Made by a program: the position numbers and the translations under genes
Sequence record: ON528746
Direction: 5' to 3' (one strand)
Length of the DNA: 64,000 nt
DNA from: Shigella phage ESh36
Notes under the pieces: model-generated
What the model was told of the DNA's origin: nothing
The model's input: the letters and a program-made list of their open reading frames with translations, nothing else
Databases searched by the model: none
Shown: positions 599-26,028 of the stretch, one piece after another
Numbering within the stretch: the stretch's first letter is position 1
Layout: each line of letters opens with the position of its first letter

Positions 599-712
599 TC
601 ACATAAATCCAAAGTAAGCGTTTAATACATCAATCATTAAAACGATTGGGAATATACTCAAAACTACTAGTATTATAACTACATTCCATATAGCTTTAAC
701 AATCTTTTTCAT
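599..712 (-). CDS. small hydrophobic peptide
   Basis: ATG at 712 preceded by GGAGG and an early promoter; track ORF 599..847 reads through the promoter. Confidence 0.3.
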   Translation of the reverse strand: MKKIVKAIWNVVIILVVLSIFPIVLMIDVLNAYFGFM

Positions 713-740
713 TTTCTGTTCCTCCGTAGTTGATAGGGTA

Positions 741-770
741 ATAATACCACAGAGGAACAGTCTTGTAAAC
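741..770 (-). promoter_or_regulatory. T4-type early promoter (GTTTAC -35, 18-bp spacer, TATTAT -10)
   Basis: Minus strand reads GTTTACAAGACTGTTCCTCTGTGGTATTAT, followed by GGAGG and ATG at 712. Confidence 0.6.
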
Positions 771-955
771 AACTTTTTTAAAAATATTCGTAATAAATGT
801 GAATACCAATCACCACTGCCGAAACTTGTGCAACCCACCACGCACAAGCAATAAGCACAGAATTCAAAATTTTCATAATAACCTCATTACAAAAGTAAAT
901 GTTAAACAAATTAATGGAATACTAATTAACCAAACAAAACACCACCACAATGAAC

Positions 956-1219
956 TCATAGTTCAATCTCAGCGATTTTCATTTCATTACTATTAATAGC
1001 CGCTTTAAGACTATCTGAAAGAATTACATTCCAGTGGTCATTCATATGACCATTAACTAAGCGTGTAATTTCTTCGGGAGTGGAAAAATAAGGCGTATCA
1101 GACTCCCAATGCGATAGACCCAAGCGAGTATAAATCATACCTTCATCATCGCTAGAATATTCAACTGACACAAACTCATCAGTTATTTTATGTTTAGCGT
1201 AATAAAATTTAAATTTCAT
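956..1219 (-). CDS. hypothetical protein
   Basis: ATG at 1219 (MKFKFYY) preceded by GGAGG and an early promoter; track ORF 956..1279 includes promoter sequence. Confidence 0.45.
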   Translation of the reverse strand: MKFKFYYAKHKITDEFVSVEYSSDDEGMIYTRLGLSHWESDTPYFSTPEEITRLVNGHMNDHWNVILSDSLKAAINSNEMKIAEIEL

Positions 1220-1246
1220 TTTTGCTCCTCCGTAGCTGATAGTTAT

Positions 1247-1276
1247 ATAGTACCACATTCCTTGTGGTATGTAAAC
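1247..1276 (-). promoter_or_regulatory. T4-type early promoter
   Basis: GTTTAC, 18 bp, TACTAT on minus strand, upstream of ORF starting at 1219. Confidence 0.55.
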
Positions 1277-1292
1277 CATTTTGTGAAAATTT

Positions 1293-1850
1293 TTAAATGG
1301 AAAGATACCATCCGTTGTAGTTGCTTTTTCTTACAACCTTACGAAGGTCTTCTCTATCACCGATGAACTTCGGAGTATACTGGATGACACCTGGATGAAT
1401 TTCTTTAGTGTTGAATATAATTATACAGTCAGCGACCTGATGATTCAGAATGGGCCCTAGATTTATTCCAGAACCATATGGATACTCTCCGCTGCATCCT
1501 GTTGTTACAGAAATCCAACGCGAGTCAGTTTGATGTGTCTTAACTTCTACACGAAGCCCGCAATATCTTGGATGCGCTAATACATCCCATGCGTATGTAT
1601 ACGGGTCATTAACATCCTCTTGGCCTTTGTTAACATGCCCGCTTAGCCAATCTGCTACAAAAAACTCTGCGTACACCGCGATACGGCATCTTTCGATAAC
1701 TTCTGCTTTATCCTGATTAGGATTTTGTTTTAAAGAGTATCTTGCTGTATCAGCAATTTTGACCTTCATTTCACTAGTCAAGTCACTGTTCGATAGGGTA
1801 AATGTCGGAATCTGAAATAGTCTCTGTAAACCCGGATTCGTTTTCTGCAT
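1293..1850 (-). CDS. denB: endonuclease IV (DenB)-like
   Basis: 185-aa ORF; size and position downstream of rIIB match recalled T4 denB. Confidence 0.7.
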   Translation of the reverse strand: MQKTNPGLQRLFQIPTFTLSNSDLTSEMKVKIADTARYSLKQNPNQDKAEVIERCRIAVYAEFFVADWLSGHVNKGQEDVNDPYTYAWDVLAHPRYCGLRVEVKTHQTDSRWISVTTGCSGEYPYGSGINLGPILNHQVADCIIIFNTKEIHPGVIQYTPKFIGDREDLRKVVRKSNYNGWYLSI

Positions 1851-2112
1851 TTAGACTTTCCTTTTTACCGCTGAGATAAGCGTTATATACTTTAAGAGTG
1901 CCGTAATAAATTCGGTCATTTTCATCTAAAGACTCACGGTCAAGTTCATCGAGTTCCTTTTTATCCATGACTATAATATCATTGCAGTAAAGAAACCCAA
2001 GTTTTTCGTGACCAAACTCAAATTTATTGCAGTACACAATATTAGCATGATGATTTCCGTGCAGTTTAATCTCTTTTATGTCGGAATCACCGATATTCAT
2101 ACAATAAATCAT
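1783..2112 (-). CDS. hypothetical protein
   Basis: 109-codon ORF, start preceded by AAGGA; 3' end overlaps denB start by 68 nt in another frame. Confidence 0.35.
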   Translation of the reverse strand: MIYCMNIGDSDIKEIKLHGNHHANIVYCNKFEFGHEKLGFLYCNDIIVMDKKELDELDRESLDENDRIYYGTLKVYNAYLSGKKESLNAENESGFTETISDSDIYPIEQ

Positions 2113-2130
2113 AATTTTTCCTTAAAACAA

Positions 2131-2147
2131 AAGGGCCGAAGCCCCTT
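2131..2147 (-). terminator. UUCG-tetraloop hairpin followed by U-run
   Basis: mRNA strand GGGGC-UUCG-GCCC then UUUUGUUUU, just after stop of ORF 2151..2345. Confidence 0.5.
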
Positions 2148-2150
2148 ATT

Positions 2151-2345
2151 TTATTTGAATTGTGCAATTCTTTTTTCTAAACAATCTGCGTAAGATTTCA
2201 TTGAGATGAACTGTGAAAGCAGTAATTCTTGCTCAACTTCATTAATCGTTAGAAACTTTGTGCTTTCTAAAAATTTGCTCAGTGCATTAATTTTGAGCAT
2301 TAATTGATCGTATTCTTCTTTTACTCGTGCTTGATAACCTAACAT
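2151..2345 (-). CDS. hypothetical protein
   Basis: 64-aa ORF immediately downstream of rIIB; start context AAGGAAAAUUAUG. Confidence 0.5.
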   Translation of the reverse strand: MLGYQARVKEEYDQLMLKINALSKFLESTKFLTINEVEQELLLSQFISMKSYADCLEKRIAQFK

Positions 2346-2359
2346 AATTTTCCTTAGTT

Positions 2360-2375
2360 AAGGGCCGAAGCCCTT
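2360..2375 (-). other. UUCG-tetraloop RNA hairpin between rIIB stop and next gene
   Basis: mRNA AAGGGC-UUCG-GCCCUU overlapping rIIB stop codon. Confidence 0.5.
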
Positions 2376-3312
2376 ATTTAAATTGTTCTGTAACGTCTTC
2401 AACTACTTCGTATTGGCAGGTACGCATTTTAGCATCGTTGTAATCAATCGGAATTGATACTACATCACGCGGATGTACTTTAACTTTTACAACTCGGCTG
2501 GTTGAACTGCCAAAGTGACGAATATAAGATTTAGAACACACATGCAGACCGCGAGAACAAGTTTGTGTATCATCGTCATTCACACGAGTACGTGGCATTT
2601 TAACTACTTTACCCGGACTGTTATCAAAGGTGTTTGAGTGACAGTCAAAGTAGTTGTCACGAACTACTTTCCAAGCATAGAAGTAACCATCTTCGGTGAT
2701 TTCAATATCGTTTGCTACCAAGAAATCAAAGAGTCGAGATACCGCTTTTTGGCTTGGGTTTTCCAACAGATTTTCCAGGAACGGAAAATAAAATTCAAAG
2801 TTTTCACCTTTTTCCATCGAGTCAAGAATACGATCAACCAAACCAGATCGTAATTCGATATTTTGATAGAACAAGCTTCCACCTTCAATTCGAACATCAC
2901 CGGAAATATATTTTTCAACAGCGCGACGAACGTTAATTTTTTGCGCTGCTTCTTCCAATTTATCTGCAACAAGCAGATTAAGAATTTCTTGGAAGTTTGA
3001 ATGAGTATTAGGAGTTGCGTTATAAGTTACGCCGTCAACGGTAATTGAAATGAATTTTTTAGATGCATTCCAAATAATGTCAGATTTAGCAACTGGAGCA
3101 ATAACTGCATCGCTATTAACTTTAACTGTAATATCACCGCTAATAGTAACTTTAGAGCGTTTAGCTTCTTCAGCATTTTTCAAAACACGACGGATTGTGT
3201 CAACCGATACACCTTGCCAATCAGCCAATTCCTGTTGGGTGTAATTACCACTTGAATACAGCTTAACAATTTCAGCTTGTTCGTTTTTGGTCAGGCATTT
3301 AATATTGTACAT
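2374..3312 (-). CDS. rIIB: rIIB protein
   Basis: 312-aa ORF directly downstream of rIIA; size and position as in T4. Confidence 0.85.
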   Translation of the reverse strand: MYNIKCLTKNEQAEIVKLYSSGNYTQQELADWQGVSVDTIRRVLKNAEEAKRSKVTISGDITVKVNSDAVIAPVAKSDIIWNASKKFISITVDGVTYNATPNTHSNFQEILNLLVADKLEEAAQKINVRRAVEKYISGDVRIEGGSLFYQNIELRSGLVDRILDSMEKGENFEFYFPFLENLLENPSQKAVSRLFDFLVANDIEITEDGYFYAWKVVRDNYFDCHSNTFDNSPGKVVKMPRTRVNDDDTQTCSRGLHVCSKSYIRHFGSSTSRVVKVKVHPRDVVSIPIDYNDAKMRTCQYEVVEDVTEQFK

Positions 3313-3323
3313 AATTTTCCTTA

Positions 3324-5501
3324 TTAGGCCGCAAGGGCCTTCATAGTTTTAGCGATTTGGGAAACTTCATCATCACTTAAAGAGTTGCGATAACCGATGA
3401 AGTCGGAAACAATACGGAATTTCTTGGTAAACTCAGCAACCATTTTATCACTATTTTTTGAAGCATTACGTGATAATTCATCAAAGAGATTAGTTACTGT
3501 CCAGATATCATGACCAATGGTATCTTTTCCACCATTGAAATACACACCGCGTAATGAACTAACCATATTAGCGAGTCGTGTATATTCTTCAGAAACTTCA
3601 TCTGTACTGAAGTACTTCATCATAAAATCTAGTTCAGGATGCTTGATAATTTTATCAATATATCGTTGAGCTGAACTTGAATAACCTACATACTTATCAT
3701 AATCTACATCATCAAAAGCATCTACATATAAATCACGCAAAGCTTCAAAAATACATTGGCACTGACCGAGTTCTTTTACCTTTTTCTGTAAAAGCGGACG
3801 AATAACATAAAATTCATTAATGCCAATAAGATTAGCCATACGAATCAAAATATTCATAGATGGATGACAAAGTGATGTAGTACCATCCATAGAGAAAATA
3901 TCAGAACGATGCATATACGCTACATAACCAGTAATTTCATCTGCTTCTGACGTAAGTGTAAATAATTCCTCTTTTTCCCAACGCCCATCTTTAATTTCAA
4001 ACTTAAATGCTGTAGCAGCTTTAGGACGAGGAGCTTTACTTTTAACTGCCTTCGGAATATAACTTTTAACTAAAGCTTCAATTTCTGACAAATAATGAAT
4101 GTTAACTTCATCACTTTCAAACATTGCCATAATATCAGGGAGTAAATCAATCTGCGATTCTACTTCCGGATTAATAAACAAAAGACGCTCATTATGATGA
4201 ATATTCAAAGTGTTATTAAATTCACTATCATCTAACGCATGCGCTAATCCACGGACAATATTAACGCGATTTTTAATATTATCAATAACGATATTAATTT
4301 TTGTTGTATTAATACCGAACAGACGATAACTTGATGCAACGGCTGAAGTTTCATGACTTTGCTTAATGCGTTTCAGTCGAGGGTCAAGATTTACTTCATA
4401 CACAACTCCTGCATTGCATAGCTTACTATCTGGTTCAAACATGCTTTGCATCTTCTTATATGACAGATTTTTAGTCGTAAATTTGACTGAATTACTAATC
4501 ATATAATCTCGAGCAGAATATCCCATCTTCATCAATTCACGGTATGTATGACGAGGAGATGTAGATTCTTTAAATCGTTTTACATCTTCATTGAATGCCT
4601 TCTCACTAAGCTCTTTAACACGCTCAATAATATTTTTACGAGTACGATCATCTAATGAAAGAGCTTCGCGTGATGGAGCAATATCAAGTGAACCCATTGG
4701 AAACTTAATGTAATTCACTTCATTACGGATGCTTAACCAGTTACGGTCTCTAATAACACCATCAATAGGATAAACAATACCGCCGTAGATAGCATATAAT
4801 CCACCACGATCTGGCCAATATCTTTCTGGATTTACACCGTAATAGTCATCAAAATCCGGAAAATAATCAATTTCACGGTCAAGACCATTAATGATAGCCA
4901 AATCTTTGAATGGTCGCATGATATAAGAAACTTCATAAGCAAAGTTTCTAAAGTCTTTTTCTTCAACTGGAACTACGATTTCAATACCAGTTTTATCATC
5001 TGGACCCATTTCTTTTACGAATGTAGGTTTAATCTGTGGACCATCACCATCCATGTAAGCTACATAACCACGAATTTCACCTTTATGATATGAAGTAATA
5101 CTAAATGTATCAGTATAACTAAACGGAGATTTAGAACCTAAACCAAACCCGCCAATAAAGTCATTAGATTCAGCCTTAGATGAACTGAAGTATGAATTAT
5201 ACAGACCAGGAGAATTATCATCACCCTGAATATCAAAATCACTCATACCCGGACCAAAATCTCGACAAACAAATCGTGGATCTAAACGTCCAGGAACTTG
5301 TATGATAAATTTTTCAGGATTTCCATTGAGAGCATGGGCATCAATCATGTTGGTAATCAATTCACGGACTACTGCGCGAATTTTGTTTGTATACAAATCA
5401 GATGACAGAATTTTAAATACTTTAGGAGATGCTGTGATGCTAAATGCTTTTGATTTAGAACCATTACCAAGAATTGTTTCTTTTTCAGTGGTGATAATCA
5501 T
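3324..5501 (-). CDS. rIIA: rIIA protein
   Basis: 725-aa ORF beginning [27 protein letters not shown], matching recalled T4 rIIA N-terminus and length. Confidence 0.9.
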
Positions 5502-21209: not shown

Positions 21210-21252
21210 ATTAACCTCTATTCATAAAAGCATTAAAAATTTGGTCATCAAT
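21207..21252. repeat. 46-bp direct repeat, copy A
   Basis: Identical to 21564..21609; spans a stop codon, GAGG SD and ATG of the next gene. Confidence 0.8.
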
Positions 21253-21566
21253 CGACGGAATAGCAACCTTTCGGCATCATTTAGCAAATCATTAATTTCA
21301 TCAGATAGCATAACACATGTGTCTTTATTTCCTGTAATTGTTACTGCACAATTACGAACGTTTTCTTTATCAAATTTTAGGTTAATATTTTCGTAGTGAA
21401 AATCCTTTAATGCCGAATATATCTTTAAAATGAAATTGTCTTTTACTACAATAAACCCAACCTCACTATTAAAACGTGGTTCATGGAAACTGTAATAAAC
21501 CTTTTCATCTATAAAATCGTATGAAATTTTTTCCATTTTTAAATATGAAAATTCAGAACTATACAT
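21222..21566 (-). CDS. hypothetical protein, paralog of half of adjacent 208-aa protein
   Basis: 114-aa ORF with GFIVVKDNFILKIY motif also found twice in ORF 21568..22194. Confidence 0.5.
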   Translation of the reverse strand: MYSSEFSYLKMEKISYDFIDEKVYYSFHEPRFNSEVGFIVVKDNFILKIYSALKDFHYENINLKFDKENVRNCAVTITGNKDTCVMLSDEINDLLNDAERLLFRRLMTKFLMLL

Positions 21567-21609
21567 ATTAACCTCTATTCATAAAAGCATTAAAAATTTG
21601 GTCATCAAT
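21564..21609. repeat. 46-bp direct repeat, copy B
   Basis: Identical to copy A, 357 bp away. Confidence 0.8.
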
Positions 21610-22194
21610 AGAAACATTTACTTTAGACTGTTTTTCGGATGGTAATTCATATCCACATATTACAATTTTGTGATCAATATCAAAATACACAGAAGCAATA
21701 TGATTAATGCTGCTTTCAGTAAAGTCTAAATCAACATCAATATCTTTTTGACCAAAGCCCAAAGGATAAATAATGCGAGTAATTCGATTATCTTTAACAA
21801 AGATTCCACCGACATACTCTGTACTGCGTTTAAAGTCTATACGCCGACGAAATGAAAAATATTCAGGCTCTTTATGAGCTCGGCTCATAGGGCACAACGA
21901 ATAACTAGAATAAGAGATGTCAAATCCTACGCCTTCAATATGAACTAAATTGTCATGATTAAACCAATTATAATCATATGCCAAGTCCATTAGATTGTCA
22001 TATGTGAAAGGCACCGGATTAACATCATTGGTCACAAGCATATAATTAGCAACTGCTATAATTTCATTATTTTTAACGAATACAAACCGTGATTGATGCG
22101 AATGACCTGGACCCGCGTTTTCACGATTAATGATATAACACTGGGCACCTTTATATTTGTATGTATCTTTGCACTTGTGCATTTGATAGAGCAT
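21568..22194 (-). CDS. hypothetical protein with internal duplicated motif
   Basis: 208-aa ORF; motifs FVFVKNNEIIAV and GGIFVKDNRITRIIY. Confidence 0.55.
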   Translation of the reverse strand: MLYQMHKCKDTYKYKGAQCYIINRENAGPGHSHQSRFVFVKNNEIIAVANYMLVTNDVNPVPFTYDNLMDLAYDYNWFNHDNLVHIEGVGFDISYSSYSLCPMSRAHKEPEYFSFRRRIDFKRSTEYVGGIFVKDNRITRIIYPLGFGQKDIDVDLDFTESSINHIASVYFDIDHKIVICGYELPSEKQSKVNVSIDDQIFNAFMNRG

Positions 22195-23018: not shown

Positions 23019-23048
23019 ACTATACCATAGTCTTGTCAGCTTGTAAAC
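23019..23048 (-). promoter_or_regulatory. T4-type early promoter
   Basis: GTTTAC, 18 bp, TATAGT; -35 overlaps the gene 41 stop codon (TAGTTTAC). Confidence 0.55.
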
Positions 23049-23671
23049 TAAAATTTTAATTCATTTGCCAAAGCATCTAACTGTGCTCGAGTGGATTCAT
23101 TTCTTTGATAGCGATTCTGCTCAGCCTGAATCTGTTGTGAACCTGCTACCTCACTCACTTCAGTTGGAGTAGAATCTTGTTCAATTTCTACCCATTTCTG
23201 ATTTCCTTTTTGAACACCCATCAAAAACTTATTCCATTTGTTCTTATCACCATATCGTGATTTGATTTGCTTAATGAGTTGTTGTTCAGCAGCTGCTAAC
23301 TCCTCAGTTTCAATGACTGCAAGCATAAAATCAGCTGTTGCTGGAAGTCCGGCACTGTTTTTAGTCAGTATACCGTTAGCATAGAAAAGCTGGTCCCCGG
23401 CAACAGAAATATCATACATCATGTCTTCTTCGAGTTCTTCAATTTTCAGAACTTCATCATTATAATCAAGTAATTTATCTGTTTTCTCATAAAGCTTAGC
23501 GTTATACTTTTCTGTCTGCATCAGAGCTTCAAAGATTTCTTCAGCGGAAGAATCATTACCGTTGATTGATGCATAATGATTAGCAATTGACCAACATCTT
23601 AAAGATGCTAGATACTCATCAAAATCCGTGTACTCTGCCGTCCCATCCAAATTATACACATTAGCAAGCAT
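23048..23671 (-). CDS. 41: helicase gp41 C-terminal fragment: split-intein C-half fused to C-extein
   Basis: KIEELEEDMMYDISVAGDQLFYANGILTKN (intein blocks F/G) immediately followed by SAGLPATADFMLAVIETEEL... helicase C-terminus; start of C-half uncertain. Confidence 0.75.
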   Translation of the reverse strand: MLANVYNLDGTAEYTDFDEYLASLRCWSIANHYASINGNDSSAEEIFEALMQTEKYNAKLYEKTDKLLDYNDEVLKIEELEEDMMYDISVAGDQLFYANGILTKNSAGLPATADFMLAVIETEELAAAEQQLIKQIKSRYGDKNKWNKFLMGVQKGNQKWVEIEQDSTPTEVSEVAGSQQIQAEQNRYQRNESTRAQLDALANELKF

Positions 23672-24659
23672 TTTTAATCACCTCTACCATTTCAGATAGT
23701 CTCATTGTATCATTGATTCTTACTAAAGCAAAACCATTCTTTTTCGCTATAAGCTCCTTCCTAAGATCTTTTCTTATCGCCTTAGTTTGGCTTATACCAT
23801 AAACATACCCTCGATACTCATGCTCATGACCTTTAATAACATGGAATGCTCTGCCGTCATATTCTATTAAAGTATTGCCTATTTTACCATCATAAAATAC
23901 GATAGAATTTTTTCTTCTAATAAACCATTCTCTATCGATCTTTATTGACAAAGCCGCTTCTATTTGGTTTAATATTCTATCACATTCTTTTGACGTACGG
24001 GTTCTTGGATTTTTAAAAAATGCTCTAGCTTGTTCTGCCTTTTTATCTTTATACACATGTTCCCAGCTATTTCCGTATTTGTATTTTAATTTATTTTTAA
24101 AATTTTCAACGGTTTTTAATGCGTGAGATTCTTTGGCTTCTTTGAGAGCTTGCTCGGGGTTATCAACTCCTTTGTTAGTCCAAAATTCCAATTCATACCA
24201 TTTTCTATTAGATTTGTGCCAATTTTTCTTAAGTGAAATTGAAATCTTTTTAGAAATTTCTTCAGATTTTTTGAATTTTGATTTTGTCAAAGGATTTGAA
24301 TTTCTAACTTTAGCACCTGAAATATAATTAGCATTCGCCTTCGACCATGCGTATTCAGCATAAGCTAAACCATATACTAAAACATTTCTATCGTATTGTG
24401 ATATTCCCGCAATAGAAATTTTGCCTCGTTTGAGGCATTGTTCTATCTCAGATTCTGTTGGCCAACAGCATAACCTAGCATAGTATTTTACTGTAGATTT
24501 TAAAAATATCGTTTTATCTAATTTTATGGATGCAAGATGTTCCTTTATTTTTATAATATTATATTCCTTTGGCTCATTAACAAGTTCATCTTTAAAATGT
24601 TTTAAAGAACAAAGGCGTTTCCATACGCCTTCAACAGAATAATCAGTTATTTGTCGCAA
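23661..24659 (-). CDS. free-standing homing endonuclease, EDxHD / Vsr-like (DUF559) family
   Basis: 332-aa ORF in a third frame between the gp41 halves; C-terminal FYDGKIGNTLIEYDGRAFHV...DLRKELIAKKNGFALVRIND; apparent TTG start. Confidence 0.65.
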   Translation of the reverse strand: MRQITDYSVEGVWKRLCSLKHFKDELVNEPKEYNIIKIKEHLASIKLDKTIFLKSTVKYYARLCCWPTESEIEQCLKRGKISIAGISQYDRNVLVYGLAYAEYAWSKANANYISGAKVRNSNPLTKSKFKKSEEISKKISISLKKNWHKSNRKWYELEFWTNKGVDNPEQALKEAKESHALKTVENFKNKLKYKYGNSWEHVYKDKKAEQARAFFKNPRTRTSKECDRILNQIEAALSIKIDREWFIRRKNSIVFYDGKIGNTLIEYDGRAFHVIKGHEHEYRGYVYGISQTKAIRKDLRKELIAKKNGFALVRINDTMRLSEMVEVIKNAC

Positions 24660-26028
24660 ATTTAGTACCTACCGTAATACCATTGGCAATAGACATTCTT
24701 CCACGGTCTGTTGGAAACTTATGCATATCCGAGCATATGATTGTTTTACCTGATTTAAGAGTAATTTTGTATTTTTTAGAACGCTTCGGATGAGAAACTT
24801 GGATGACAGGTCTGAATCCATCATATGATTCGACCATATCACCTACTTTAACTTCATTGATGAATTTTTCACCCTTTAAAGTTTTTACTACAGTAGATTT
24901 ATCTAAACATTCTGCAATATCACTCATGTTAACATCAGAAGAATCCCAAGCTTGTTTACCAACCTGCGCTGCAGTCCAAAGAACAGTTTCGGTTTCAACA
25001 GCCAGAGCACGCAATTCCTCTGCAATAGCTTTAACAGTTGTGTAACTATTTTCTGAATAAACTCTAATGCGGCAAGATTTACAAATACCTAGATAGTCGA
25101 CAATAATGATTGTTGGAACAAAATTCTTCTTGAGCTTTAATTCATTTAAAAGTGATCGAAATGTATTAGCGTCTGCTCCACCAGTAGGATATTGCTTAAC
25201 GATTAAACGACCAAGGGTAGATTTCTCACGCCATTTTTCCATTTTTCCTTTATATTCAGCGTAAGAAATATGTCCATCATCAATATCGTCAAGAGAAACA
25301 TCGAGCATATTAGCATCAATACGCTTAGCACAGACTTCTTCTGCCATTTCCATGGAAATGTAAAGAACATTATGTCCGAGCTGCAAATAATCTGCTGCCA
25401 ATGAACACAAACCTAATGACTTACCGACGTTAACACCAGCCATTAAAACGTTCAGTGTTCCTGTCTCAGCTCCGCCTTTAGTAATTTTGTTTAGAATTCT
25501 GAGTTTAAATGGAACCTTACGAGCTTTATTCATATAAGATAGCCAACGTGCTTCGTAGTCATCCATCCAATCATGACCAACGTAGCTATCAAATGAAATT
25601 GATAATGCTTGCCGCATAATGTCAGGAATAGCACCAACATCCGGCATTTTCTTATTTCGTTTTTCCGGAGGAAGTTCAGCATTGGTTTGAATTTCGATTA
25701 TTTTAGACGTAGCATTAAACATCGCCCTTTGCTGAACATATTTTTCTGTTTCTTTTATTAACCAGCTGTGGTCTTCTGGAGAATCAGCCAGTTTTGAAAT
25801 AAGTGTTTTTACACCAGAATATTCTGTTTCAGTAAATGAACTATTTTCTAATGCAACATTTAACGCATTAATAGATGGAACGCTATGATACTCATTAACA
25901 TGAGATTTAATTAATTTGAACGTATTTTTAGCTGGACCACTTTCAAAATATTCTGAATCCATATATGGCCAAACTTTTGAAAAATAAGCTTGATCAAATA
26001 TGAGATGAGAAAGAATAATTTCTACCAC
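24643..26028 (-). CDS. 41: helicase gp41 N-terminal fragment: N-extein (373 aa) fused to split-intein N-half (88 aa)
   Basis: DnaB-like helicase with Walker A GVNVGKS up to ...NMSDIAE, then CLDKSTVVKTLKGEKF...TIICSDMHKFPT (intein blocks A/B) and stop. Confidence 0.8.
   Translation of the reverse strand: MVEIILSHLIFDQAYFSKVWPYMDSEYFESGPAKNTFKLIKSHVNEYHSVPSINALNVALENSSFTETEYSGVKTLISKLADSPEDHSWLIKETEKYVQQRAMFNATSKIIEIQTNAELPPEKRNKKMPDVGAIPDIMRQALSISFDSYVGHDWMDDYEARWLSYMNKARKVPFKLRILNKITKGGAETGTLNVLMAGVNVGKSLGLCSLAADYLQLGHNVLYISMEMAEEVCAKRIDANMLDVSLDDIDDGHISYAEYKGKMEKWREKSTLGRLIVKQYPTGGADANTFRSLLNELKLKKNFVPTIIIVDYLGICKSCRIRVYSENSYTTVKAIAEELRALAVETETVLWTAAQVGKQAWDSSDVNMSDIAECLDKSTVVKTLKGEKFINEVKVGDMVESYDGFRPVIQVSHPKRSKKYKITLKSGKTIICSDMHKFPTDRGRMSIANGITVGTKFATNN

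Follow-up and report, generated by a model that had tools for sequence, protein, structure and literature searches.

Gene 41 encodes the gp41 helicase and is essential in T4. In Shigella phage ESh36, a Tequatrovirus with a genome of 170,646 bp (accession ON528746), this gene is found in pieces, which raises the question of how the phage obtains an intact helicase. The window analyzed here is a stretch of 64,000 nt of ON528746; all positions refer to it, and all features of the locus are on its minus strand. ESh36 is a plaque-forming isolate, and no intein or homing element is mentioned in the paper describing it (PMC9686686). The answer that we consider very probable is that ESh36 gene 41 is a fractured gene, interrupted by a split intein and a free-standing homing-endonuclease gene (HEG), and that the helicase is restored by trans-splicing.

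A helicase gene in three reading frames

The locus consists of three open reading frames (ORFs), each in a separate frame, and the frames differ at both junctions. ORF1 (24643..26028) encodes 461 amino acids (aa): 373 aa are the N-terminal part of gp41, ending in ...NMSDIAE (N-extein, 373 codons, 24910..26028), and the other 88 aa, CLDKS...ATNN, are the N-terminal half of the intein (IntN). ORF2 (23661..24659; 332 aa) is the free-standing HEG. ORF3 (23048..23671) encodes 207 aa, of which 105 aa ending in ...ILTKN form the C-terminal half of the intein (IntC) and 102 aa beginning with SAGLPATADFML form the rest of the helicase (C-extein, Ser+1 to ELKF, 102 codons plus stop, 23048..23356). IntN, HEG, and IntC together make up a cassette of 1553 bp (23357..24909), the putative mobile unit. 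In the record, ORF2 is annotated as 'hypothetical protein'. Automatic pipelines label such three-ORF loci as a truncated helicase and hypothetical proteins.

Both flanks of the cassette belong to gene 41. The N-extein matches Pfam DnaB_C (E 1.3e-13) and has ~97% nucleotide identity with gene 41 of 495 Tequatrovirus records, and the C-extein matches a PHROG DnaB-like helicase (E 3.5e-14). The insert interrupts the gene past codon 373 with clean boundaries. Excision of 23357..24909 in silico restores an ORF of 1428 nt, the length of gene 41 in T2 and ESh31, and the excised gene is collinear with both without a gap. Between it and the T2 gene the differing codons are 41 synonymous and 2 non-synonymous ones, and both helicase halves are under purifying selection. 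The predicted spliced product of 475 aa has the length expected in an earlier note on this DNA. That note had also described a gp41 frame ending in ...NMSDIAE followed by an 88-residue Hint N-half, a separate ORF of 332 codons in a different frame, and a third ORF in which an intein C-half is fused to the helicase C-terminus, and had argued from the three frames against a contiguous intein. The anatomy of the three ORFs bears out each of these points, and the last one is borne out also by independent contigs.

Three-frame layout and junctions are reproduced without indels in metagenome sequences. L086, a contig of 1155 nt recovered by an exact 38-nt search, spans -260 to +895 about the 5' junction; it has 23 substitutions and lacks indels. 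It includes the extein/IntN junction and the IntN-stop/HEG-start junction, its IntN stop and HEG start are as in ESh36, and its IntN protein is identical to that of ESh36. Contigs L001-L003, from three samples, contain the HEG-stop/IntC-start junction and the entire ORF3, also with no indel. The overlapping three-ORF layout recurs in the diverged loci L004/5/6, L007, L008/9, and L010. Because the layout is recurrent and the junctions are free of indels in independent contigs, the frames do not result from a sequencing frameshift.

IntN has 88 codons (24646..24909); its Cys1 codon begins at 24909, and the TGA stop lies at 24643-24645. The IntC core (23357..23452), 32 codons encoding VLKIEELEEDMMYDISVAGDQLFYANGILTKN, contains blocks F and G and the terminal Asn105. 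A fusion of IntN, the 39 C-terminal residues of IntC, and SAGL is matched by phmmer to the gp41-1 intein (6qaz) with E 2e-27. IntN is 43% identical to gp41-1 IntN and 39% to gp41-8 IntN; the IntC core is 54% identical to gp41-1 IntC and 47% to gp41-8 IntC. An intein-profile search of the two termini, proposed in the earlier note, is mixed in outcome: with Pfam Intein_splicing the separate halves score 16.6 and 18.8 bits, under the cut-off of 35.8 bits, and only the phmmer match to 6qaz is significant. Word-indexed protein searches with IntN alone or the 105-aa IntC alone find no match, which reflects a limitation of the index and is not evidence of absence.

The residues expected to carry out splicing are in place. 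The N-terminal nucleophile is a Cys (ORF1 residue 374) directly past ...SDIAE, and it is invariant in relatives, as is the His of block B (S-D-M-H within IICSDMHKFP). IntC ends in ...DISVAGDQLFYANGILTKN, and at the C-terminal junction, ...ILTKN|SAGL, N105 and S106 are invariant. All lineages examined have Cys1, block-B His, block-F Asp, terminal Asn, and Ser+1, and DISVAGDQLFYAN..LTKN does not vary in five lineages. Two positions depart from the usual pattern. The penultimate His is replaced by Lys104 (TKN, not THN) and the block-F His by Gln94, and both replacements are fixed in five ESh36-type lineages. These two His usually aid Asn cyclisation; they are common in inteins and not obligatory. 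With both replaced, splicing chemistry may be slower or different. The net charge is +9 for IntN, -5 for the IntC core, and -15 for the whole IntC.

The endonuclease gene and the distribution of the cassette

The HEG (23661..24659; 332 codons) starts with TTG at 24659 and shares its first 17 nt with the 3' end of the IntN ORF, and its stop overlaps the IntC ATG by 11 nt (ATGCTTGCTAA). At the homologous start position ATG is found in L004, GTG in L007, and ATG in L008, each with a motif like a Shine-Dalgarno (SD) sequence upstream, and these motifs are embedded in conserved G-x-x-G codons of IntN. A terminator-like scan finds a stem-loop at 24610..24633 (GAAGGCGT-ATGGAA-ACGCCTTT with a T-rich tail), 10 nt past the IntN stop and over HEG codons 9-17. 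At the corresponding place, RNAfold predicts a similar hairpin in L007 and in L008 and none in L004. The T4 late promoter TATAAATA is absent from the insert. A strong SD, GAGGTGA, precedes the ATG of IntC. These signals suggest that translation of the HEG is weak and coupled, and that initiation of the C-half is independent and efficient.

An exhaustive HMMER search of 1.84 billion cluster representatives finds only five relatives of ORF2. Four of the five occupy the same position in fractured gp41 genes, and the fifth (P0006) is distant, is located elsewhere, and has NUMOD3 repeats. ORF2 and its family have no significant match in Pfam, NCBIfam, PHROG, or PDB sequence searches, a scan of IMG/VR with ORF2 peptides finds no relatives, and exact-protein look-ups of ORF1, ORF2, and P0001 return no record. 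A DUF4048 match of ORF2 (E 0.0012) is below the cut-off, and its matches to HIV gp41-5 and annexin are noise; all were rejected. Because sequence searches found nothing significant, the nuclease assignment required a structure model and profile comparison.

In the AlphaFold2 (AF2) model of ORF2, the mean predicted local distance difference test (pLDDT) score is 75, and block means in the C-domain are 63-94 with a dip at 271-290. Residues 224-332 (23664..23990) form an alpha-beta3-alpha-beta-alpha domain. Residues 1-220 are helical with a disordered linker at 112-158, and no NUMOD match is found in ORF2. The top PDB match in Foldseek is the catalytic domain of I-Bth0305I (3r3p; prob 0.97, template modeling score 0.58); the fold also matches the DUF559-like 3hrl and Vsr, and the C-terminal domain has the Vsr-like fold derived from PD-(D/E)xK nucleases. 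With hhalign, six nuclease domains of the family align to the 3r3p sequence with prob 88.9% and E 2.4e-6. EYDGRAFH is placed opposite EVNGVYW(H213A), and RKDLRKELIAKKNGFALVRI opposite NKDKRKLSELHSKGYRVLTI (RKDLRK..G..L.RI vs NKDKRK..G..L.TI). Of the residues proposed to be catalytic, E244, D257, E266-x-D268, and H273 do not vary within the ORF2 family, and D298 is present in 5/6 relatives. Together they fit the EDxHD composite catalytic motif defined in PMC3239194, and nuclease activity is predicted. The EDxHD/Vsr-type nuclease named in the earlier note is thus supported by the structure model and hhalign, and finds no support in Pfam, NCBIfam, or PDB sequence searches.

Compared with I-Bth0305I, the prototype of EDxHD endonucleases (3r3p; PMC3239194), the ESh36 HEG has E-x-(D/N)-G-x-x-x-H and K-D-x-R-K in register and is likewise bipartite with a non-catalytic N-terminal region. 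It differs by a 16-residue insert between the His and the last Asp, by a helical N-terminal region of 220 aa without a detectable NUMOD or helix-turn-helix match, and by being free-standing inside an intein, while I-Bth0305I is intron-encoded. HEGs of 376-429 aa occupy this insertion site in IMG/VR loci, and the ESh36-type HEG family aligns with them as full-length homologues (prob 97.4%, E 1e-11). The IMG/VR HEGs have the more typical motif YDF...IEYNGIAWHP and 0 Pfam matches. ORF2 represents a rare, strongly diverged branch of Vsr-like HEGs that curated models do not recognize. A motif (E/D)(Y/F)W-x-x-(K/R)G(Y/V)-x-x-x-E-A occurs once in ESh36, at residues ~150-175 of ORF2, and in two or three copies in the longer IMG/VR homologues (L066/L067/L081). 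This could be a modular DNA-binding repeat not described so far, similar to NUMOD.

The cassette is rare. In a collection of 50,697 phage records, to which ESh36 itself does not belong, 0/626 records carrying the flanking gene 41 (495 at 95-99% identity) have the insert. Neither blastn of the insert nor tblastn of ORF2 or of the 105-aa IntC finds a match in these records, and tblastn of IntN finds inteins at <=38% identity only, all in other genes. Full-text searches of the literature for split inteins reported in a Tequatrovirus return nothing.

Sequences next to the insertion point bear a pattern of silent changes. Of the 36 differences from ESh31 in gene 41, 11 lie no farther than 60 nt from the junction (hypergeometric p 9e-5). 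Silent substitutions lie at +0, +1, +8, +50, and +57 from the junction in the 3' flank (23299..23356) and at -58, -34, -28, and -13 in the 5' flank (24910..24967). Positions 0, +1, and +8 are common to the L001 copy of the cassette, and 0 and +1 to L004. The Ser+1 codon is AGT in ESh36, AGC in L004, and TCT in intein-less alleles, and 0/405 intein-less alleles are >95% identical to the spliced junction over 120 nt. In two stretches, -21 to +479 and the final 568 nt as far as +13, the cassette in L001-L003 and L086 is 100% identical to that of ESh36. Beyond these stretches, 13/309 nt of the C-extein differ in L001-L003, all synonymous, and the 260 nt upstream in L086 have 10 substitutions including one Val-to-Met. 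Identical cassette stretches within exteins that are ~4% diverged suggest recent homing.

In related loci the endonuclease gene is found in all states of decay. The HEG is intact in ESh36, L004, L007, L008, L081, and the loci of L066-L074 (L070 lacks it). It has two in-frame stops in L086, is truncated in L010 and L077, and is absent in L070 and L075, and L083 is a contiguous mini-intein. As judged from these sequences, the series corresponds to the classic cycle of invasion and decay, in which the split intein is retained.

An extended C-intein among known split inteins

The IntC of ESh36 begins with 73 codons, MLANVYNLDG...LLDYNDE (23453..23671), ahead of the canonical core. The earlier note was right about blocks F and G of the C-half and did not flag these residues. 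The extension is acidic (net charge -10). It is kept from its first residues onward in L004, L007, L008, and L010, and is conserved more loosely in the IMG/VR loci L066-L072 and L077. The internal Met51 was considered as the start of IntC and rejected; it is not conserved, and residues 1-50 are. The natural IntC is therefore 105 aa long, compared with 37 aa in gp41-1. No match to the extension is found in Pfam, PDB (including a profile search), or PHROG, and it has no similarity to an extra 147-aa ORF of the gp41-1 loci (see below). An origin from the HEG C-terminus was rejected as well; HEG C-termini are alike in clades with the extension and with a short IntC. The single-sequence AF2 model of ORF3 (pLDDT 44) is too poor for use and merely hints at two helices in the extension.

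A scan of IMG/VR finds a broad gp41 intein family ending in LFYAN(G/D)ILTKN|S at the SE|S site, the same site as in ESh36. In this TKN family, the extension clade has an IntC of 86-112 aa and block F of the form DI(S/T/V)V...(N/Q)LFY, and the short-IntC clade has an IntC of 38-62 aa and DIEV...HLFY. Loss of the block-F His (to N or Q) coincides perfectly with presence of the extension, which is also accompanied by a change of the block-F Glu to Ser, Thr, or Val. Gain of the extension and loss of the His may have been a single ancestral event. L083 (IMGVR_UViG_3300031603_000271, 2846-4462) has a contiguous mini-intein of the TKN family, without endonuclease, in a gp41/DnaB-like helicase; IntN is joined directly to IntC at ...KSINYNTFIIDEI..., and this intein may represent the unbroken form of the ESh36-type intein lineage. 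In L081 (IMGVR_UViG_3300013125_000017, 592-2746), gp41 is apparently interrupted twice, with a second intein-like insertion at Walker A (...HGFK|CIYGDG... / ...HHLYYANGLLSHN|SAFLAN...) upstream of the split intein at the SE|S site. The helicase of L081 would be encoded in three pieces.

Fractured phage genes of DNA metabolism, each with a split intein and a free-standing HEG, were described from metagenomes by Dassa et al. 2009 (NAR 37:2560; PMC2677866). The published loci have the same order on one strand as ESh36 (extein-N/IntN, HEG, and IntC/extein-C as separate ORFs), with gp41 as a host gene, adjacent to uvsX. The 11 nt by which HEG and IntC overlap fall within the 6-69 bp published for such loci, Vsr-like HEGs make up one of the two kinds given there, and alleles without HEG, here L070 and L075, have a counterpart in gp41-7. 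ESh36 differs from these loci in several respects. Its host is a cultured enterobacterial Tequatrovirus, whereas the loci of Dassa et al. are from marine and freshwater metagenome reads. They have a spacer of 27-51 nt before the HEG, and in ESh36 there is none. They have a hairpin and the TATAAATA late promoter ahead of the HEG, and in ESh36 the promoter is missing and the hairpin lies just past the HEG start. Their IntC is 33-54 aa long, with one terminase exception of 122 aa, compared with 105 aa in ESh36.

The gp41-1 intein (6qaz), in use as a fast tool for trans-splicing, and that of ESh36 share a homologous Hint domain, an 88-aa IntN with the same split point, Cys1, and Ser+1. The close resemblance claimed in the earlier note does not extend much further than this homology, considering the identities of 43% for IntN and 54% for the IntC core. 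We retrieved 50 gp41-1-type loci from IMG/VR, of which L019 was dissected. They read ...TRSGY|C...THN|SSSDVELTDTSESFGLPATAD, and the local exteins of gp41-1 are SGY/SSS (PMC6823396). By alignment with cyanophage gp41 and L019, the ESh36 site ...SDIAE|SAGLPATAD is 12 codons downstream of the gp41-1 site ...TRSGY|SSSDV. gp41-1 has a 37-aa IntC ending in THN, while that of ESh36 has 105 aa, TKN, Gln for the block-F His, and the 73-aa extension. The HEG partner is GIY-YIG in gp41-1 loci and Vsr-like in ESh36, which corrects the earlier note's likening of the whole arrangement to gp41-1 sequences. A basic N-half and an acidic C-half, described for gp41-1 and gp41-8 by Dassa et al., are found also in ESh36; by our own count over the whole fragment, the net charge of gp41-1 IntN is -2. 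The extra 147-aa ORF lies at 5008-5451 of L019, between the GIY-YIG endonuclease and the 37-aa IntC, and is unmentioned in the parts of Dassa et al. 2009 used for this comparison. gp41-8 also resides in a phage gp41/DnaB-like helicase and has lost the block-F His (Arg in gp41-8); it differs in its site (a third one, LNR|SAY), its THN end, and its 45-aa IntC. The DnaB-b inteins (e.g., Ssp/Rma DnaB, RESG|SIEQDAD) are contiguous and bacterial. They presumably lie in the same helicase motif region H4, an intein hot-spot, at a site that is about two residues off that of ESh36 by our own alignment.

In ESh36, gene 41 is preceded by uvsX and gene 40 and followed by dmd and spackle. In L004 (ENA ERZ27282120 contig, 21.9 kb), which has the closest diverged gp41 cassette, the uvsX gene next to it (664-3322) is also fractured, giving two adjacent fractured essential genes. 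The uvsX pieces are ...TVMTGG|CVVAGTK... (IntN), a 283-aa GIY-YIG/NUMOD3 endonuclease, a 55-aa ORF, and MKIKS...GIVTHN|TGVMYSADTV (IntC). Downstream of spackle in ESh36, two ORFs of 208 aa (PHROG 3781) and 114 aa (PHROG 4122), whose proteins have a common domain, form a block of ~970 bp (21222-22194, minus strand). This block is missing in L001 and L002, which are otherwise 97-98% identical, and marks an indel hotspot. In Escherichia phage ERS-1 (PP337211.1, 15212-15605), the gene 41 match is 394 nt in two pieces (131-aa query); the implied 1-nt frameshift could be a sequencing error or a pseudogene.

Mechanism, alternatives, and meaning

The mechanism proposed for ESh36 is as follows. A naturally split class-1 intein, with a Vsr-like HEG at its split point, lies in the codons for the helicase motif ...SDIAE|SAGLPATAD. 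Two precursors, gp41(1-373)-IntN(88 aa) and IntC(105 aa)-gp41(374-475), would be translated separately. IntN, which is basic (+9), and IntC, which is acidic (-15), would associate into the Hint fold, and Cys1, block-B His, Asn105, and Ser+1 would perform trans-splicing to yield an intact helicase of 475 aa with the junction ...NMSDIAE-SAGLPATADFMLAVIETEELAAAEQQLIK. The endonuclease, whose weak TTG start is coupled to the IntN ORF end and closely followed by a hairpin, would cut the intein-less gene 41 of co-infecting relatives near the insertion site, and recombinational repair would copy the cassette together with a short tract of flanking silent changes. After invasion, the endonuclease gene may decay, while the split intein must persist in the invaded lineage because the helicase is essential. 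We infer trans-splicing from the conserved catalytic residues, the essential host gene, and the viability of the phage.

Several points weigh against this proposal. Splicing and DNA cleavage are both deduced from sequence, and both residues that usually assist Asn cyclisation are replaced (Gln94, Lys104). The 5' half of the cassette is backed by one contig of 1155 nt only, and L001-L003 and L086 may all come from one phage lineage. As for the HEG, it starts with TTG behind a weak SD, no curated family gives a significant sequence match to it, and the register of its first catalytic Asp relative to I-Bth0305I is ambiguous. L086 has a copy with two in-frame stops, and the HEG of ESh36 could likewise be heading to inactivity.

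Among the alternatives, the one with the most in its favor is that the split intein is functional and the endonuclease of ESh36 is an inactive relic, so that the cassette is inherited vertically and is immobile. We regard this as possible, though clearly less likely than a mobile cassette. The TTG start, weak SD, and hairpin over codons 9-17 speak for it, as do the nonsense codons in the near-identical L086 copy, the relatives with truncated or absent HEGs, and the rarity of the cassette among related records. On the other hand, the ORF of 332 codons is unbroken and retains every family-invariant residue, four diverged lineages retain full-length ORFs with proper starts, the identical cassette occurs in a second extein background, and silent changes cluster at the junction. 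A different doubt concerns the splicing itself. The intein halves might merely dock to give a non-covalent helicase of two pieces, as in the HNH-fractured NrdA of phage Aeh1, with splicing chemistry lost because block-F and penultimate His are gone. Fixation of Gln94 and Lys104 in all five ESh36-type lineages and N or Q for the block-F His across the extension clade would agree with this, and the discussion in Dassa et al. 2009 (PMC2677866) includes fractured genes without splicing. If the chemistry were dispensable, however, the invariance of Cys1, block-B His, terminal Asn, and Ser+1 in >13 diverged lineages would be unexpected. Active inteins without the penultimate His exist, e.g., the DnaE split inteins. 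The block-F Arg of gp41-8, moreover, goes with 81-97% splicing in published assays (PMC7090010 supplement). Simple docking is improbable to us.

The remaining two alternatives deny the split intein altogether. It is very unlikely that a contiguous intein with an in-frame endonuclease domain was broken by frameshift errors: this is possible a priori, the ESh36 record being a single assembly, but the frames differ at both junctions, both junctions are indel-free in independent metagenome contigs, and loci that are 25-50% diverged have the same overlapping three-ORF layout with their own SD and start codons. T-even phages carry group I introns with HEGs (T4 td, nrdB, and nrdD), so an intron with an intron-encoded endonuclease might be suspected instead. 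This is the least credible of the four, since Rfam gives no intron match at E <= 1, and at each end of the insert the extein frame runs on into Hint blocks that match an intein crystal structure.

A fractured gene with a split intein and a free-standing HEG is a kind of element known since 2009, mostly from metagenomes. New in ESh36 are the host, a cultured T-even-type coliphage/Shigella phage; an insertion site that, by alignment, is distinct from those of gp41-1 and gp41-8; a conserved 73-aa IntC extension that appears coupled to loss of the two assisting His; and the rare, diverged branch of Vsr-like HEGs to which ORF2 belongs. More tentatively, extension and block-F changes may define a new natural subclass of split inteins with an active helical module. 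If so, the extension could capture the basic N-half, take over from the lost His in Asn cyclisation, or act as a gate on splicing or on the endonuclease during infection. ESh36 would also be the first T-even phage open to culture and genetics that allows direct measurement of two processes: trans-splicing of an essential protein in vivo, and HEG-driven mobility of a split intein.

The gp41-1, gp41-8, NrdJ-1, and IMPDH-1 inteins are standard tools of protein engineering, but a host-phage pair in which to study their natural biology has been lacking. ESh36 is a T4-like phage plating on Shigella, and T2, T4, and hundreds of other intein-less relatives that are almost identical to it can serve as natural recipients; homing crosses, mapping of the cleavage site, and proteomics of the splice junction are therefore feasible. 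New orthogonal split-intein parts might be derived from the extended, His-poor C-intein, which also tests how many of the canonical catalytic residues are indispensable. Related loci cover the whole series that the gene-breaking model proposes, from a contiguous mini-intein to a split intein with an intact HEG, with a decaying HEG, and without HEG. Questions of in vivo trans-splicing, stoichiometry of the halves, mobilization of a split intein by its endonuclease, and the origin of split inteins come within reach.

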